From Escherichia coli (GTDB lineage: Bacteria; Pseudomonadota; Gammaproteobacteria; Enterobacterales; Enterobacteriaceae), in assembly GCF_003334785.1 (NCBI RefSeq), contig NZ_QOWV01000015.1: a DNA stretch of 64,000 nt. One strand, given 5' to 3'. The notes under the pieces were generated by a model. The model was not told the DNA's origin and did no database searches. It was given only the letters and a program-made list of their open reading frames with translations. Below, one piece after another: positions 1 through 64,000 of the stretch (position 1 is its first letter; every line of letters starts with the position of its first letter). Both the position numbers and the translations under genes were made by a program.

Positions 1-241
1 AGAAAATATCCGGCGGGTTCCGGAGCGCCAGTCTGTAGGTTTATCCATCAATAGAACTCCGTCTAATTTAGAAGGAGCTCTAATTTAGTCTGCAAGGAGC
101 AGGTGTTACAGACGGCATTGGCTTTACGCTTACAGACCGGGTTATGCAGCCACGCGTAGAACCCGGCCCGGGCGACATCCAGTACCCGACACATTGTCAT
201 CACACCCCATACAGTGCGGTGCTCATTGATAAAGCGGTACT

Positions 242-526
242 TCAGTAGGGCTCCCTTGCAAAGTACCGCGCGGCCTTTTTCAGGATATCCCGTTCTTCTT
301 CGGTACGTTTTAGCTGCGCCCGTAGTTTCAGGATCTCGCTTTTGGCTTCCAGTAAATCCCGGGCATGCTGCTCGCTGTTATCCGGTTTGATAGCCCGTAG
401 CCACTTGTAGAGGCTGTGGGCAGAAACGCCCAGACGGTGAGATACTTCGGCAACGGAATAACCGCGTTCCGTTATCTGTCGGACGGCTTCTTCCTTAAAT
501 TCAGGTGTAAATCGTGGTGTGCTCAT
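242..526 (-). mobile_element. IS3-family transposase OrfA (helix-turn-helix N-terminal ORF, 94 aa); downstream orfB appears disrupted
   Basis: Translation has the typical IS3-family OrfA architecture (HTH then leucine-zipper-like C-terminus ending KKAARYFA). Reverse complement of ~130-241 encodes an OrfB-like N-terminus (KYRFINEHRTVWGVMTMCRVLDVARAGFYAW) that hits stops in all frames near position ~75-115. Confidence 0.75.
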
Positions 527-809
527 ATGCTCCCCCCTATACTCAAACTATAGGGCAGGATCGTCTACCGGGGTGGGGTCAGTCCATTACTAACTGACAG
601 TTGTACCGAATACTGGGGGCAGGTCAAGCGCTTTAGCTTGTGTGGCAACAACCTCCTTTACAGGACCAGGTAGACGATTACCCTCTGCTGTTTCTGTGCT
701 CAACGCAATCTACGGCTATCCATTTTCTGCCAGTGGTTGCAAAGACGACCATTCAACGTCAGCAAAGTTTCGCAATGCACTGCTATGTAACTCATTGATC
801 CTACGTAGA

Positions 810-5756: not shown

Positions 5757-6552
5757 ACCTAATATCCTTATATCCAGAAGTGGAGAGGTGCAAGATAAAT
5801 CAAAACACCATAATTACTGTTTGCAGAATAATTCCTTTCTGCCGGTCCGAAATGTGATCGTGGAGTCAATTCTGACGATGATCTGAAATAAGAATAACGT
5901 CTGAACGGGTATAAGAAAATGCTTAAATCATCAAGTTTATATATTTTTACATTTCATTGATGAAATCAATGTAACTGCAATGAATTTTAATGATAGTGCT
6001 TTTTGTATCTTGTTGATATTAATCAATGAATTTGAATTCATGATGAAATGATGATTTTATAAAAGGTTTTTTCATTTTTGCGAGATGGCTCTCATTATAC
6101 GTGTTCTGTTAATTAATGAGCACAGTGATAATTAATGGCGAAATGAATGGCGTGCATTTTCCACATCTTTGAGTTGCGGTTATTACACCATTTCAAAAAC
6201 TCAACGCCAGGTAATGCGGCCTATTGACTGGTTAAAAAGAAGACATCCCGCATGGGTACCAAAGACAACAAGGATTTCCAGGCTAATCTTATGGATTAAT
6301 CTGCTGTGCATTCGACAATTTGTCTGACAAATTGGCTTTCCCTTATGTCTTTTCCCGCTAAATTTATGCACGTTCTCACTGTAATTCTGCGATGTGATAT
6401 TGCTCTCCTATGGAGAATTAATTTCTCGCTAAAACTATGTCAACACGGTCACTTATCTTTTAGTTAAAAGGTAATGCTTTGTTTTCCGATTAATTTAACG
6501 AATGTCATTCGTTTTTGCCCTACACAAAACGACACTAAAGCTGGAGAGAACC

Positions 6553-7542
6553 ATGCACAAATTTACTAAAGCCCTGGCAGCCATTGGTCTGGCAGCCGTT
6601 ATGTCACAATCCGCTATGGCGGAGAACCTGAAGCTCGGTTTTCTGGTGAAGCAACCGGAAGAGCCGTGGTTCCAGACCGAATGGAAGTTTGCCGATAAAG
6701 CCGGGAAGGATTTAGGGTTTGAGGTTATTAAGATTGCCGTGCCGGATGGCGAAAAAACATTGAACGCGATCGACAGCCTGGCTGCCAGTGGCGCAAAAGG
6801 TTTCGTTATTTGTACTCCGGACCCCAAACTCGGCTCTGCCATCGTCGCGAAAGCGCGTGGCTACGATATGAAAGTCATTGCCGTGGATGACCAGTTTGTT
6901 AACGCCAAAGGTAAGCCAATGGATACCGTTCCGCTGGTGATGATGGCGGCGACTAAAATTGGCGAACGTCAGGGTCAGGAACTGTATAAAGAGATGCAGA
7001 AACGTGGCTGGGATGTCAAAGAAAGCGCGGTGATGGCGATTACCGCCAACGAACTGGATACGGCACGTCGCCGTACAACGGGTTCTATGGATGCGCTGAA
7101 AGCGGCCGGATTCCCGGAAAAACAAATTTATCAGGTACCTACCAAATCTAACGACATCCCGGGGGCATTTGACGCTGCCAACTCAATGCTGGTTCAACAT
7201 CCGGAAGTTAAACATTGGCTGATCGTCGGTATGAACGACAGCACCGTGCTGGGCGGCGTACGCGCGACGGAAGGTCAGGGCTTTAAAGCTGCCGATATCA
7301 TCGGCATTGGCATTAACGGTGTGGATGCGGTGAGCGAACTGTCTAAAGCACAGGCAACCGGCTTCTACGGTTCCCTGCTGCCAAGCCCGGACGTACATGG
7401 CTATAAATCCAGCGAAATGCTTTACAACTGGGTAGCAAAAGACGTTGAACCGCCAAAATTTACCGAAGTTACCGACGTGGTGCTGATCACGCGTGACAAC
7501 TTTAAAGAAGAACTGGAGAAAAAAGGTTTAGGCGGTAAGTAA
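6553..7542 (+). CDS. araF: L-arabinose ABC transporter periplasmic binding protein AraF
   Basis: Translation from MHKFTKALAAIGLAAVMSQSAMA (signal peptide) gives 329 aa recognised as AraF; RBS ggaga upstream. Confidence 0.96.
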   Translation: MHKFTKALAAIGLAAVMSQSAMAENLKLGFLVKQPEEPWFQTEWKFADKAGKDLGFEVIKIAVPDGEKTLNAIDSLAASGAKGFVICTPDPKLGSAIVAKARGYDMKVIAVDDQFVNAKGKPMDTVPLVMMAATKIGERQGQELYKEMQKRGWDVKESAVMAITANELDTARRRTTGSMDALKAAGFPEKQIYQVPTKSNDIPGAFDAANSMLVQHPEVKHWLIVGMNDSTVLGGVRATEGQGFKAADIIGIGINGVDAVSELSKAQATGFYGSLLPSPDVHGYKSSEMLYNWVAKDVEPPKFTEVTDVVLITRDNFKEELEKKGLGGK

Positions 7543-7611
7543 TTTGCCGGAAAAATTCCCCTCTGCATGATGCAGAGGGGGTGTGAACGACCAGTGATTC
7601 ACGGAGACGTT

Positions 7612-9126
7612 ATGCAACAGTCTACCCCGTATCTCTCATTTCGCGGCATCGGTAAAACGTTTCCCGGCGTTAAGGCGCTGACGGATATTAGTTTTGACTG
7701 CTATGCCGGTCAGGTTCATGCGTTGATGGGTGAAAATGGCGCAGGAAAATCAACTCTCTTAAAAATCCTCAGCGGCAACTATGCGCCAACCACGGGTTCT
7801 GTAGTGATTAATGGGCAGGAAATGTCCTTTTCCGACACGACCGCAGCACTTAACGCGGGTGTGGCGATTATTTACCAGGAACTGCATCTCGTGCCGGAAA
7901 TGACCGTCGCGGAAAACATCTATCTCGGCCAGCTGCCGCATAAAGGCGGCATTGTGAATCGCTCATTGCTGAATTATGAGGCGGGTTTACAACTTAAACA
8001 TCTTGGTATGGATATTGACCCGGACACGCCGCTGAAATATCTCTCCATTGGTCAGTGGCAGATGGTTGAAATCGCCAAGGCGCTGGCGCGTAACGCTAAA
8101 ATTATCGCCTTTGATGAGCCAACCAGCTCCCTTTCTGCCCGCGAAATCGACAATCTTTTCCGCGTTATTCGTGAACTGCGAAAAGAGGGGCGGGTGATCT
8201 TATACGTTTCTCACCGTATGGAAGAAATATTTGCCCTCAGCGATGCCATCACTGTCTTTAAAGATGGACGTTATGTCAAAACCTTTACCGATATGCAGCA
8301 GGTTGACCACGACGCGCTGGTGCAGGCGATGGTCGGGCGCGACATTGGCGATATCTACGGCTGGCAACCTCGTAGTTATGGCGAGGAGCGCCTGCGTCTT
8401 GATGCTGTGAAAGCACCAGGCGTGCGTACGCCAATAAGTCTGGCGGTTCGCAGTGGTGAAATTGTTGGGCTGTTTGGTCTGGTAGGGGCGGGGCGTAGCG
8501 AATTAATGAAAGGCTTGTTTGGCGGGACGCAAATCACCGCCGGTCAGGTTTATATCGACCAACAGCCGATCGATATTCGTAAACCGAGCCACGCCATTGC
8601 CGCAGGCATGATGCTCTGCCCGGAAGATCGCAAAGCGGAAGGCATTATTCCCGTGCACTCCGTTCGCGACAATATCAACATCAGTGCCAGACGTAAACAT
8701 GTGCTCGGCGGTTGTGTAATCAACAACGGTTGGGAAGAAAACAATGCCGATCACCACATTCGTTCGCTCAACATCAAAACGCCGGGCGCTGAGCAACTGA
8801 TCATGAATCTCTCAGGCGGAAATCAGCAAAAAGCCATTCTGGGCCGCTGGTTATCGGAAGAGATGAAGGTCATTTTGCTGGATGAACCTACGCGCGGCAT
8901 TGATGTTGGCGCTAAGCACGAAATATATAACGTAATTTATGCGCTGGCGGCGCAGGGTGTGGCGGTGCTGTTTGCCTCCAGCGACTTACCTGAAGTCCTC
9001 GGCGTTGCCGACCGGATTGTGGTGATGCGCGAAGGTGAAATCGCCGGTGAATTGTTACACGAGCAGGCAGATGAGCGTCAGGCACTGAGCCTTGCGATGC
9101 CTAAAGTCAGCCAGGCAGTTGCCTGA
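7612..9126 (+). CDS. araG: L-arabinose ABC transporter ATP-binding protein AraG
   Basis: [17 protein letters not shown]... with two ABC cassettes (Walker [10 protein letters not shown]); 504 aa. Confidence 0.96.
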
Positions 9127-15652: not shown

Positions 15653-18544
<2,892 letters not shown>

Positions 18545-33772: not shown

Positions 33773-34873
33773 ATGCGAGGGAAAAAACGCATTGGGTTAT
33801 TGTTTTTGCTGATAGCGGTTGTGGTTGGTGGCGGCGGGTTATTGCTGGCGCAAAAAGCCTTACATAAAACGTCGGATACAGCATTTTGCCTTTCCTGCCA
33901 CTCGATGAGTAAACCTTTTGAGGAATATCAGGGAACTGTCCACTTTTCGAACCAGAAAGGGATACGTGCGGAATGTGCCGATTGCCATATTCCAAAGTCA
34001 GGGATGGATTATTTATTTGCTAAATTAAAAGCATCTAAAGATATTTATCATGAATTTGTTAGCGGCAAAATAGACAGTGACGATAAGTTCGAAACTCATC
34101 GCCAGGAAATGGCCGAAACAGTATGGAAAGAATTAAAAGCAACTGACTCTGCAACGTGCCGTAGTTGCCATTCTTTTGATGCCATGGATATTGCCTCGCA
34201 AAGTGAATCTGCGCAGAAAATGCATAACAAAGCACAAAAGGGCGGCGAAACCTGTATCGATTGTCATAAAGGCATTGCCCATTTTCCGCCAGAAATAAAA
34301 ATGGATGACAACGCGGCGCATGAGCTGGAAAGTCAGACCGCTACTTCAGTGACTAATGGCGCACATATTTATCCTTTCAAAACTTCTCGCATAGGCGAGC
34401 TGGCTACCGTGAATCCTGGTACCGATCTCACCGTCGTTGATGCCAGTGGCAAACAGCCGATCGTTCTGTTGCAGGGTTATCAAATGCAGGGCAGTGAAAA
34501 CACGCTCTACCTGGCGGCAGGTCAACGGCTGGCGCTAGCCACATTAAGTGAAGAAGGTATCAAGGCGCTCACGGTAAACGGGGAATGGCAGGCTGACGAA
34601 TACGGCAATCAATGGCGTCAGGCGTCTTTACAGGGTGCGCTTACCGATCCCGCATTAGCGGACCGTAAACCGCTATGGCAATACGCTGAAAAACTTGACG
34701 ATACCTATTGCGCTGGTTGTCATGCCCCTATTGCCGCCGACCATTACACCGTCAATGCGTGGCCGTCCATTGCCAAAGGAATGGGGGCACGAACCAGCAT
34801 GAGCGAAAACGAACTGGACATTTTAACGCGGTATTTCCAGTACAACGCCAAAGATATTACCGAGAAACAGTGA
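33773..34873 (+). CDS. torY: Pentahaem c-type cytochrome TorY (NapC/NirT family)
   Basis: 366-aa ORF with multiple CxxCH haem motifs (CLSCH, CADCH, CRSCH, CIDCH, CAGCH). Confidence 0.95.
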
Positions 34874-34897
34874 TCCTCGTTGATCAGGGAGGAAGTT

Positions 34898-37327
34898 ATG
34901 ACATTAACAAGACGTGAATTTATTAAACACAGCGGTATTGCCGCTGGAGCGCTGGTGGTGACATCGGCAGCACCGCTACCCGCATGGGCAGAAGAGAAGG
35001 GCGGTAAAATCCTCACCGCGGGACGCTGGGGAGCGATGAACGTAGAAGTGAAGGACGGCAAGATTGTTTCTTCGACAGGCGCGCTGGCGAAAACCATACC
35101 GAACTCCTTACAGTCTACGGCGGCGGATCAGGTACACACCACGGCGCGTATTCAGCATCCGATGGTGAGAAAAAGCTATCTCGATAATCCACTGCAACCG
35201 GCGAAAGGTCGAGGCGAAGATACCTATGTACAGGTGAGCTGGGAACAAGCATTAAAACTGATTCATGAGCAACACGATCGTATTCGTAAAGCTAACGGAC
35301 CATCGGCCATTTTTGCCGGATCTTACGGCTGGCGCTCTTCTGGCGTGTTGCATAAAGCGCAAACCTTACTGCAACGTTATATGAACCTCGCGGGCGGTTA
35401 TTCCGGGCATAGCGGCGATTATTCAACCGGGGCAGCACAGGTGATCATGCCGCATGTGGTCGGTTCTGTAGAGGTGTATGAACAGCAGACCTCCTAGCCG
35501 CTGATTCTGGAAAACAGCCAGGTTGTGGTGCTGTGGGGGATGAACCCGCTGAATACCTTAAAAATTGCCTGGAGCAGTACCGATGAGCAAGGGCTGGAAT
35601 ACTTCCATCAGCTGAAAAAATCTGGCAAACCAGTGATTGCCATTGATCCTATCCGCTCCGAAACCATTGAGTTCTTTGGCGATAATGCCACCTGGATCGC
35701 GCCGAATATGGGCACCGACGTGGCACTGATGTTAGGGATTGCGCATACCCTGATGACACAAGGCAAACACGATAAAGTGTTCCTTGAAAAATACACCACC
35801 GGGTATCCGCAGTTTGAAGAATATCTGACAGGTAAGAGCGATAATACTCCGAAGAGCGCGGCCTGGGCGGCGGAAATTACTGGCGTACCGGAAGCGCAGA
35901 TAGTCAAACTCGCTGAACTGATGGCGGCGAATCGCACAATGCTGATGGCAGGCTGGGGAATTCAGCGCCAGCAATATGGTGAACAGAAACACTGGATGCT
36001 GGTGACGCTGGCGGCGATGTTAGGGCAGATTGGTACACCGGGCGGCGGTTTTGGTTTCTCTTATCATTACTCCAATGGTGGCAACCCGACACGTGTTGGC
36101 GGCGTGCTGCCGGAAATGTCTGCGGCGATTGCCGGACAGGCCAGCGAGGCCGCTGATGATGGCGGAATGACGGCGATTCCTGTTGCCCGTATCGTCGATG
36201 CGCTGGAAAATCCTGGCGGCAAATATCAGCATAACGGTAAAGAGCAAACGTATCCGAATATCAAAATGATCTGGTGGGCGGGTGGCGGTAACTTTACCCA
36301 TCACCAGGATACTAATCGTCTGATTAAAGCATGGCAGAAACCGGAGATGATCGTCGTTTCTGAATGCTACTGGACCGCAGCTGCTAAACATGCAGATATC
36401 GTATTACCGATCACCACATCGTTTGAGCGCAATGACTTAACGATGACCGGTGATTACAGCAACCAGCATATTGTGCCGATGAAGCAGGTTGTTGCTCCGC
36501 AATTTGAAGCGCGAAACGATTTTGATGTGTTTGCCGATCTTGCGGAATTACTCAAACCTGGCGGAAAAGAGATCTATACCGAAGGTAAAGATGAAATGGC
36601 GTGGCTGAAATTTTTCTATGATGCCGCTCAGAAAGGTGCCCGTGCGCAACGCGTGACTATGCCGATGTTTAATGCCTTCTGGCAGCAAAATAAACTGATC
36701 GAAATGCGCCGCAGCGAGAAGAACGAACAGTACGTTCGTTATGGTGATTTCCGCGCCGATCCGGTGAAAAATGCGCTGGGTACGCCAAGCGGCAAAATTG
36801 AGATTTACTCCAAAACGCTGGAAAAATTTGGCTATAAGGATTGCCCGGCACACCCAACCTGGCTTGCGCCTGATGAGTGGAAGGGTACCGCCGACGAGAA
36901 GCAGTTGCAGCTTCTGACCGCACATCCGGCACACCGTTTACATAGTCAGCTTAACTATGCGGAACTGCGTAAAAAATATGCGGTTGCAGATCGTGAACCA
37001 ATCACTATTCACACCGAAGATGCTGCTCGCTTTGGTATTGCGAATGGTGATCTGGTGCGTGTGTGGAACAAACGTGGTCAGATTCTGACAGGCGCGGTGG
37101 TGACTGACGGGATCAAAAAAGGCGTGGTATGCGTGCATGAAGGTGCATGGCCAGATCTGGAAAATGGCTTGTGTAAAAACGGCAGTGCGAACGTGTTAAC
37201 GGCGGATATCCCCAGCTCGCAGCTGGCAAATGCCTGTGCCAGTAACTCTGCGCTGGTGTATATCGAAAAATATACGGGCAATGCGCCGAAGTTAACGGCG
37301 TTTGATCAGCCAGCTATTCAGGCATAA
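34898..37327 (+). pseudogene. torZ: torZ (bisZ) TMAO/biotin-sulfoxide reductase, interrupted by an in-frame TAG at 35495-35497
   Basis: Two same-frame ORFs (34880-35497, 35525-37327) together encode a full-length molybdoenzyme with Tat signal ([21 protein letters not shown]); they are separated only by TAG where TGG (Trp) is expected. Confidence 0.8.
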
Positions 37328-46545: not shown

Positions 46546-47559
<1,014 letters not shown>

Positions 47560-47561
47560 GT

Positions 47562-47885
47562 CGGATTGGTCGCTCGCACCGCATCCGAAATTGGCAGTGT
47601 GCCTGATGCGACGCTATTCGCGTCTTATCCGGCCTACCAGAGATAGCGAACCGTAGCTCGGATAAGGCGCTCGCGACGCATCCGACATTGGCAGTGTGCC
47701 TGATGCGACGCTATTCGCGTCTTATCCGGCCTACGAGAGATAGCGAACCGTAGGTCAGATAAGGCGCTCGCACCGCATCCGACATTGGCAGTGTGCCTGA
47801 TGCGACGCTGTTCGCGTCTTATCAGGCCAGCCAGAGATAGCGAACCGTAGGTCGGATAAGGCGCTCGCGCCGCATCCGACAAATG
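47562..47885. repeat. BIME/REP cluster (about three tandem ~100-bp units)
   Basis: Repeated units of cgcatccgacattggcagtgtgcctgatgcgacgct(a/g)ttcgcgtcttatc(c/a)ggcc...agagatagcgaaccgtagg with small variations. Confidence 0.85.

Positions 47886-63232: not shown

Positions 63233-64000
<768 letters not shown>

Follow-up and report, generated by a model that had tools for sequence, protein, structure and literature searches.

The torZ gene of the Escherichia coli DNA analysed here is very probably a young pseudogene, whose premature amber codon (W200*) arose by deamination of 5-methylcytosine at a Dcm site, spread by descent and recurred in one further strain, PK5. In the window (i.e. the whole stretch of 64,000 nucleotides that was analysed) a single G>A change has turned a tryptophan codon within a CCTGG site into TAG, and across complete E. 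coli genomes nonsense alleles of torZ are found in excess at Dcm positions.

The torYZ locus and its interrupted reading frame

The features of the locus are as follows:
33773–34873, + strand: torY, an ORF of 366 aa, annotated as WP_001214316.1 in genomes identical to the window
34898–37327, + strand: torZ pseudogene, 809 codons interrupted by one amber codon (from the translation and RefSeq annotation)
34898–35494, + strand: truncated product of 199 aa, with a Tat signal (RREFIK), Molybdopterin_N, about the first quarter of the Molybdopterin domain and the predicted Mo-ligand Ser176
35495–35497, + strand: premature amber codon TAG (W200*), ancestrally TGG, the changed base being 35496 (G>A)
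35525–37327, + strand: downstream in-frame ORF with a GTG start, 600 aa, the 3' remainder of torZ

TorY, encoded by the first gene of the torYZ operon, is a pentahaem NapC/NirT-type cytochrome c; it is intact, and WEM25, a close relative with TGG in torZ, carries the same TorY protein as the window. The CDS annotated as torZ maps to 34898–37327, which makes the TAG codon 200. Single-frame translation of 34880–37327 gave one internal stop (context ...[21 protein letters not shown]...) in an otherwise intact frame of 809 codons. This agrees with an earlier note on this DNA, which had described two torZ ORFs (34880–35497 and 35525–37327) in one frame, split only by the TAG at 35495–35497, with no frameshift and the remaining gene intact. 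The torZ genes of the carriers described below likewise show no secondary decay.

In the close relatives WEM25 and ML35 the codon is TGG, and nothing else differs in the surrounding 81 nt. Among solved homologues, H. influenzae TorZ/MtsZ (7l5i, EVYEQQTSW) and the DMSO reductases of Rhodobacter (1eu1 and 4dmr, EVYEQQTAWP) likewise have tryptophan where codon 200 aligns, which bears out the expectation of a tryptophan here in molybdoenzyme homologues. The same note had offered to give up its reading if reference proteins lacked this residue and a protein of its own began at 35525; the homologues have it, and the ORF is the remainder of torZ. As a separate gene, 35525–37327 was rejected, as it corresponds to positions 171–770 of TIGR00509, without a Tat signal and without the N-terminal domain, and none of the records inspected annotates a separate gene there.

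The N-terminus ([13 protein letters not shown]...) is a twin-arginine signal, and the gene of the partner, torY, lies intact directly upstream. On the intact protein, Pfam places Molybdopterin_N at 40–80, Molybdopterin at 84–550 and Molydop_binding at 670–779; in the window no frame spans all three domains, as the stop stands at codon 200. The NCBIfam model TIGR00509 (bisC_fam) has a cut-off of 1017.55 bits, and the intact WEM25 allele reaches 1267.5 bits, while the two torZ fragments of the window score 241.6 and 989.0 bits, both below it. The locus is thus torZ by descent and encodes no TIGR00509 member protein. Ser176, within the truncated product, aligns with Ser147 of 1eu1, which we take to be the Mo ligand.

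Termination after 199 residues would cost the protein three quarters of its molybdopterin-binding domain and all of the dinucleotide-binding domain at the C-terminus. Judged from this domain content, the truncated TorZ is presumably inactive, so that no active periplasmic TorZ reductase would be made and TorY would be left without its partner. No other gene should be affected, because the operon ends with torZ.

Distribution of the W200* allele

Complete E. coli genomes (5,426) were searched with a 55-nt query able to seed on the A allele only, and the allele was found in exactly 10 of them. The remaining genomes have no A allele or, in about 120 cases, are without this part of torZ, and the wild-type haplotypes examined have TGG; the in-frame stop is therefore not conserved across lineages. 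In all seven carriers whose annotation was inspected (FDAARGOS_1248, PEC399, VE-F10, JKHS016, LR-64-2, 200112 and PK5), RefSeq describes the gene as a trimethylamine N-oxide reductase TorZ pseudogene with an internal stop.

Nine of the ten carriers form one clade, in which the window is included, with 0–2 SNPs per 17 kb, and between FDAARGOS_1248 and the window there are 5 SNPs in 63 kb. Isolates of this main clade come from the USA, Viet Nam, Japan, Ecuador and Mali. It is a very recent, globally spread clone, and together with the internal-stop annotation this upholds the proposal of a recent TGG>TAG nonsense mutation that would inactivate TorZ.

A former Dcm site at codon 200

The feature relevant here, which the earlier note did not mention, is:
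35493–35497, no strand assigned: former Dcm recognition site, ancestrally CCTGG and now CCTAG (read directly from the sequence)

The changed base, 35496, is the fourth base of CCTGG and the complement of the inner C in the bottom-strand CCAGG. CCTGG is present in all 11 wild-type haplotypes examined, and CCTAG in the carriers. The carrier FDAARGOS_1248 has intact dcm (WP_001157246.1) and vsr (WP_000786004.1); both genes lie outside the window, and from this near-identical genome the source strain, too, can be expected to possess dcm. Four features of a Dcm hotspot mutation were found: an ancestral CCWGG, a C>T change of the inner C (read as G>A), a host that encodes Dcm, and recurrence. The position of codon 200 in a Dcm methylation site would explain why this base changed, and probably did so more than once.

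The following course of events is proposed. In the ancestral CCTGG at 35493–35497, Dcm would have methylated the inner cytosine of the bottom strand (5'-CmCAGG-3'), opposite 35496. Spontaneous deamination of this 5-methylcytosine to thymine, rather than a replication error, would have given a T:G mismatch; mismatches that result from deamination of C(5mC)WGG are the substrate of very-short-patch (VSP) repair (PMC2715241). A mismatch that escaped Vsr before replication would leave CCTAG on the top strand, by which the Dcm site would be lost and the codon would become a stop. The W200* allele would then have spread by descent in the recent global clone that includes the window, and the same change would, probably, have occurred separately in PK5.

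Nonsense alleles across torZ

All 90 G:C>A:T nonsense targets in torZ (7 Dcm and 83 non-Dcm) were probed against the 5,426 complete genomes, with probes that had 24-nt flanks and 4-nt all-mismatch spacers, covered 11 haplotypes and were validated locally. Seven of the 18 Dcm-methylated positions of torZ give amber codons; besides W200, these are:
35519, + strand: Q208, wild type in the window, amber elsewhere
35571, + strand: W225, wild type in the window, amber elsewhere
35694, + strand: W266, wild type in the window, W266* elsewhere (sequence-verified)
35865, + strand: W323, wild type in the window, W323* elsewhere (sequence-verified)
36305, + strand: Q470, wild type in the window, amber elsewhere
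36861, + strand: W655, wild type in the window, W655* elsewhere (sequence-verified)

Every one of the seven Dcm-derived amber sites was found mutated somewhere, compared with 19–20 of the 83 non-Dcm sites (Fisher p 0.9–1.6e-4), and this comparison of sites hit, which rests on 7 Dcm sites, is the only fair test of the scan. Counted by genomes, 75 fall on the 7 Dcm sites and about 43 on the 83 non-Dcm sites, numbers that are inflated by clonal expansion. A few rows of the scan are ambiguous among codons 159, 181 and 196, all of them non-Dcm, and the test is unaffected by them. W655* occurs on two haplotypes 69 nt apart. The W266* group consists of 45 genomes; the three of its carriers that were sampled share one haplotype, so this large group may stem from a single event. 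As Dcm and non-Dcm nonsense alleles have the same phenotype, the excess at Dcm positions points to mutation rate and not to selection.

Selection or neutral loss

It might nevertheless be supposed that the hotspot merely supplies the mutation and that loss of TorZ is adaptive, positive selection having made the W200* clone and the W266* group common. Transition-type nonsense alleles of torZ are present in at least 118 of the 5,426 genomes (2.2%), and some others have IS insertions in the gene; two alleles are found in many genomes across hosts and continents, and probes for two torZ stops matched in a single genome, LR-24. Hitch-hiking in successful clones, however, fits these counts equally well, and the Dcm excess itself favours mutation bias. 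S-/N-oxide reduction in E. coli is served by several redundant enzymes, and expression of torZ is low in the absence of stress (PMC12096835); given this redundancy and low expression, neutral loss is the simpler reading, and adaptive loss is considered unlikely. A related view, that torZ is unusually fragile and that some host-associated clones gain from losing it through mutations at its Dcm sites, is regarded as quite improbable; if true, a favoured loss of TorZ would explain the presence of the W200* clone and the W266* group across continents and hosts.

PK5 and the question of a second origin

PK5, the tenth carrier, has the TAG on a K-12-type haplotype. It differs from the window at 53 positions in the torZ CDS and at 214 in 17 kb, while many genomes with TGG are, judged from bit scores, only about 2 mismatches away from PK5 over torYZ. 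With haplotypes 53 nt apart, W200* probably arose twice. Around the TAG, a stretch of 149 bp is the same in PK5 and in the main clade, the first differences on either side being 107 bp upstream and 43 bp downstream from the mutated base; this makes import through a very short recombination tract a formal possibility. The allele would then have arisen once, at an ordinary rate, and reached PK5 by homologous recombination, the Dcm context being a coincidence.

An imported tract of less than 149 bp would leave no trace, and PK5 shares with several members of the main clade a prophage in yecE, about 4.5 kb away, so these lineages do meet the same mobile elements. Against this, SNPs between the two haplotypes are spaced about 50 bp apart on average, but gaps of 150–400 bp occur elsewhere, and the 149-bp identity is therefore no sign of import. 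Joint transfer of the allele with the prophage is ruled out, since dozens of positions between the TAG and yecE distinguish PK5 from the window. A coincidence of this kind would, moreover, have had to recur: all seven Dcm amber sites are hit in the scan, against 19–20 of the 83 others, and W655* likewise stands on two separate haplotypes. Transfer of a single W200* mutation is thus held to be distinctly improbable, and independent mutation at the Dcm site is preferred for PK5.

Read-through, recoding and sequencing error

The earlier note had also raised the prospect that an amber suppressor could allow the codon to be read through. If a suppressor tRNA or the codon context permitted this, a useful amount of full-length TorZ might still be made; the frame beyond the stop is intact, suppressor alleles exist, and 160 genomes match a suppressor-type anticodon probe. 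An intact downstream frame is, however, expected anyway in so young a clone, and the stop is not conserved, its A allele being absent from 99.8% of genomes. No tRNA gene was found within the window. The suppressor probes covered seven alleles (the trpT, lysT, tyrU-specific and glu classes being outside their scope) and matched the positive controls C600 and DH5alpha; of the 160 matches, the 60 listed are all supE-type laboratory derivatives of K-12 and include none of the ten carriers. Basal read-through of UAG in wild-type E. coli is about 1% or less. These observations lend no support to the suggested read-through, and a functional contribution from it is very improbable.

Recoding of the selenocysteine or pyrrolysine type was rejected as well, because the TAG stands at a conserved tryptophan and the allele is so rare; moreover, E. 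coli is not known to possess a pyrrolysine system.

A sequencing error that hides a true G and an intact torZ, the alternative which the earlier note had left beside mutation, can practically be dismissed: such errors do most often take the form of one changed base, and the rest of torZ is intact, but the same base was read in ten independently sequenced and assembled complete genomes from various laboratories, hosts, countries and continents, the allele tracks phylogeny (the eight closest relatives of the window over 25 kb are eight carriers) and the site (35489–35500, acc tcc TAG ccg) is no homopolymer. This settles the split torZ as a genuine pseudogene and not an error, two genes or a recoding event.

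Relation to known systems

Amber hotspots at CCAGG sites, attributed to deamination of 5-methylcytosine, were reportedly described in lacI by Coulondre, Miller, Farabaugh and Gilbert in 1978. The torZ allele resembles them in that the inner C of CCWGG becomes T, a TAG is created and the Dcm site is destroyed. The classic lacI changes, in contrast, are CAG>TAG on the coding strand, obtained in laboratory selections, whereas the torZ change is TGG>TAG, where the methylated base would belong to the non-coding strand, and it occurs as a natural polymorphism that has become fixed in a wild clone.

On the population scale, Cherry 2018 (J Bacteriol 200:e00371-18, as summarised in PMC9520237) reports that C>T changes are 8-fold more frequent at the inner C of Dcm sites in natural E. 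coli and Salmonella genomes, with which 7 of 7 against about 20 of 83 sites in torZ is roughly compatible. That study is genome-wide and does not deal with gene inactivation, while the present data are a nonsense-allele series of one gene; our literature search found no paper on a Dcm nonsense-allele series in torZ.

In K-12, TorYZ is reported to be a third reductase system for TMAO and S-oxides (Gon et al. 2000, as cited in PMC12096835). The window shares with K-12 the gene order cutC-torY-torZ with cmoB convergent, and the intact allele is 97.7% identical to K-12 torZ at the DNA level. The window differs in that its catalytic subunit ends at residue 199 and the system is predicted to be non-functional. 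The clone is accordingly predicted to lack S-/N-oxide reduction by TorYZ; as several enzymes are redundant in this function, the physiological cost is probably small.

W200* in torZ is a known phenomenon, an ordinary and already annotated kind of gene loss in E. coli. The RefSeq pseudogenes I6J78_RS11730 (FDAARGOS_1248) and AC13LZ_RS09845 (PEC399) are identical to the window over torYZ and bear the note 'internal stop'; these records give the defect alone, and not the cause, distribution or recurrence of W200*. What the allele series adds is a modest point: as nonsense alleles of torZ are equivalent in phenotype, public genomes show the Dcm hotspot at work in nature, with selection not confounding. 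The same probe approach is usable on other dispensable genes, or on lineages with and without dcm and vsr. In FDAARGOS_1248, ptrB is also annotated with an internal stop, at a position past the end of the window.

A single amber codon in torZ

The locus is the torYZ system of K-12, a third TMAO reductase by published description and one about which less is known than about TorA. TorYZ responds to HOCl, copper and paraquat with a few-fold induction and exists alongside several redundant S-/N-oxide reductases (PMC12096835). Direct reading of window 35489-35500 gives acc tcc TAG ccg, one-frame translation of 34880-37327 contains this single internal stop and no other defect, and the mechanical ORF list holds two torZ pieces in the same frame (34880-35497 and 35525-37327). 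The amber codon described in the earlier note, splitting torZ in frame and leaving the rest of the gene intact, is thus borne out as written. The coding sequence and the domains of the intact protein are:

torZ CDS, window 34898-37327: 809 codons, the stop being codon 200 (W200*); mapped from the RefSeq annotation of identical DNA
Molybdopterin_N: residues 40-80 of intact TorZ
Molybdopterin: residues 84-550 of intact TorZ
Molydop_binding: residues 670-779 of intact TorZ

The tryptophan that the note had placed here in molybdoenzyme homologues is indeed found at the aligned position of H. influenzae TorZ/MtsZ (7l5i) and of both Rhodobacter DMSO reductases (1eu1 and 4dmr). Intact TorZ scores 1267.5 bits on NCBIfam TIGR00509, passing the cut-off of 1017.55 bits, and the 199-residue product scores 241.6 bits. 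What remains in this product is the Tat signal and the stretch aligned to the Mo-ligand serine of 1eu1 (Ser147 there, Ser176 here); of the cofactor-binding domain approximately three quarters are missing, as is the entire C-terminal domain. The downstream 600-aa ORF corresponds to profile positions 171-770, has no signal peptide and, at 989 bits, falls under the cut-off. From these losses and the properties of the downstream ORF, we infer that no active TorZ would be made. The torY gene is intact in the window, and a polar effect on other genes is not expected, since torZ is the final gene of the operon and the downstream cmoB is convergent.

Distribution and descent of the W200* allele

Nine complete E. 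coli chromosomes match the 2.6 kb around torZ at 100% identity. RefSeq classes torZ there as a pseudogene, giving "internal stop" as its note; public annotation already records the defect. A 55-nt query with the A allele at its centre, whose flanks are shorter than the 28-nt megablast word so that only genomes with A can seed, matched exactly 10 of 5,426 genomes: FDAARGOS_1248, VE-F10, PK5, JKHS016, LR-64-2, 200112, PEC399, AST198, OZ121069 and E423. As ten independent assemblies share this base, the sequencing error considered in the earlier note is rejected. Recorded hosts and sources of the carriers include humans, pigs, hospital wastewater and a cloacal swab, and the seven carriers whose records were inspected come from the USA, Viet Nam, Cuba, Japan, Ecuador, Mali and Korea.

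Over 25 kb, the eight closest relatives of the window (100.0-99.9% identity) are all carriers, and the next genome (99.7%) has TGG. Along a colinear 17 kb, five carriers of this main clade show 0-2 differences from the window. WEM25 and ML35, the genomes next in closeness, encode an uninterrupted 809-aa TorZ (WP_033873426.1) with TGG at this codon; within 81 nt around the site their sole difference from the window is the TGG/TAG base. Given 5 mismatches in 63 kb and a divergent stretch in its first 809 bases, the window represents another member of the clone of FDAARGOS_1248, the near-identical reference. Mobile elements vary among clade members but no second lesion was found in torZ of the main clade, so the pseudogene is young and inherited, in support of the recent nonsense mutation proposed in the note.

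Among these elements, ISVsa5 (IS10-like) interrupts yebB (~window 45100) in VE-F10 and, it appears, in OZ121069 and PEC399 as well, and a prophage occupies an identical point in yecE (~window 40030) in PK5, JKHS016, LR-64-2 and probably E423; the window has neither. The five differences from FDAARGOS_1248 lie at 17645, 19725, 22198, 27462 and 56150, none within a CCWGG site. Four are in motility/chemotaxis genes (cheA, tar, tap and flhA), where FDAARGOS_1248 has A or T and the window G or C; at the flhA position (27462), strain 200112 shares the difference.

A probable second origin in PK5

The tenth carrier, PK5, was isolated from a pig in Cuba; it shares the TAG but has a different protein allele at almost every flanking gene. 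Between PK5 and the window there are 89 differing sites in the 4.6 kb of torY-torZ and 214 over 17 kb. With TGG restored, its torZ is the K-12 haplotype, separated by 1 nt from W3110 and by 53 nt from the haplotype of the window, and many TGG genomes are only ~2 mismatches away from PK5. The differences nearest to the mutated base lie 107 bp upstream and 43 bp downstream, and import of the TAG on a tract of <150 bp is formally possible; the simplest reading of these comparisons is that G>A in PK5 would be an independent event.

Dcm context of the mutated base

The ancestral tCC TGG contains CCTGG, a Dcm site (CCWGG), and on the bottom strand (5'-CCAGG-3') the inner cytosine pairs with G35496. 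This cytosine would be methylated by Dcm, and deamination of the 5-methylcytosine to T would leave a T:G mismatch which, if unrepaired before replication, would give CCTAG on the top strand. T:G mismatches in CTWGG/CCWGG are substrates of Vsr very-short-patch repair (PMC2715241). Both dcm and vsr are intact in the carrier FDAARGOS_1248, ~75 kb from torZ. The classical lacI amber hotspots arise by the same deamination chemistry as that proposed here for W200*. The Dcm context adds a mechanism to the interpretation given in the earlier note, and the probable cause it points to is a textbook hotspot; publications already describe such hotspots at work in natural populations.

Immediately upstream of dcm-vsr in FDAARGOS_1248 (6001-7935 of the extracted stretch L012), an IS1 lies between a truncated hchA and a truncated HD-domain gene, and could conceivably affect dcm/vsr expression.

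Nonsense alleles of torZ across E. coli

The torZ gene has 9 CCWGG sites with 18 methylated positions, of which 7 would turn the codon into amber if deaminated (codons 200, 208, 225, 266, 323, 470 and 655); these are among ~90 stop-creating G:C>A:T changes. Genomes were scanned with concatenated 49-mers from 11 wild-type haplotypes, each with one stop change at its centre and set apart by 4-nt mismatch spacers, from which wild-type genomes give no 28-nt seed (checked locally). The full scan revealed 118 genomes with such an allele, and a complementary scan without seven already identified sites (six Dcm sites and Q530*) revealed 45.

Nonsense alleles at Dcm sites of torZ (allele, complete genomes)
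W200*: 10
Q208*: 1
W225*: 1
W266*: 45 (42 listed, the remainder by subtraction)
W323*: 8
Q470*: 5
W655*: 5

All 7 Dcm sites were mutated vs 19-20 of the 83 others (one-sided Fisher p 0.9e-4 to 1.6e-4); by records, the numbers are 75 vs ~43, both inflated by clonal spread. Seven decoded matches were sequence-checked, all of them RefSeq "internal stop" pseudogenes: NADC1036 (W323*), Y5, RM10410 and Z1323CEC0003 (W266*), EA2 and C237-04 (W655*), and 14EC001, a by-catch GAA>TAA transversion conservatively scored as a non-Dcm hit. W655* occurs on two haplotypes 69 nt apart, and this site was therefore mutated at least twice. W266* (CCTGG>CCTAG, equivalent to window 35694) is the commonest torZ nonsense allele; the three genomes sampled share a K-12-type haplotype and may reflect one event. 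Its sources are chickens, humans, swine, crow, opossum and frog.

Because the effect of a stop is much alike anywhere in the gene, the excess at Dcm positions points to mutation rate and not selection. The rate ratio, by our rough estimate of the order of eight or more (hit fraction ~0.24 vs 7/7), is in line with the 8-fold value that Cherry 2018, as summarised in PMC9520237, gives for natural E. coli and Salmonella. No paper on the torZ allele series was found in the literature; the series is an instance of a known phenomenon.

In strain LR-24 (NZ_AP027494.1), probe matches for two stops, Q231* and Q470* (the latter at a Dcm site), suggest that decay went on after the first hit, and in strain A65EC (NZ_CP182331.1) an IS1 interrupts the torYZ region on a K-12-type haplotype, which is another independent route of operon loss.

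Suppression and readthrough

Probes for seven suppressor-type anticodon alleles, built from K-12 W3110 tRNA genes (Gln CUA and UUA, Tyr CUA and UUA, Ser CUA, Leu(leuX) CUA and Leu(leuZ) UUA), matched 160 of 5,426 complete E. coli genomes. The 60 of 160 matches listed are all K-12 laboratory derivatives with a supE-type allele, including, as expected, the positive controls C600 and DH5alpha, and no W200* carrier is among these 60. Within the window and these 60 listed matches, the idea of an amber suppressor acting on W200* finds no support, and nothing suggests readthrough; the intact frame downstream of the TAG is the look of a young pseudogene. At the glnX/glnV locus, some of the listed supE-type K-12 derivatives are labelled as from chicken or mouse gut.

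Other features of the window

ARAGORN found no tRNA gene in the window, as leuZ is reduced to its 3' part (~810-865) by a break inside the gene. Window 1-809, where an IS3-family transposase gene ends, has no match to FDAARGOS_1248; ~69 genomes have the junction in common starting at base 134, and the first 133 bases occur in none. The region 1-890 resembles the border of an island or of an IS-associated insertion at leuZ.

At the other end, ptrB (oligopeptidase B, 63260-64000) runs off the window and is labelled "pseudo, internal stop" in FDAARGOS_1248; no stop interrupts the 741 nt covered here, which places the annotated one past the window's end. A tandem array between ruvB and znuB (47554-47881; a 97-nt unit repeated 3.4 times with 91% match) contains REP-like palindromic sequence of the GCCGGATAAGGCG / CGCCTTATCCGGC type and is probably a BIME/REP cluster.
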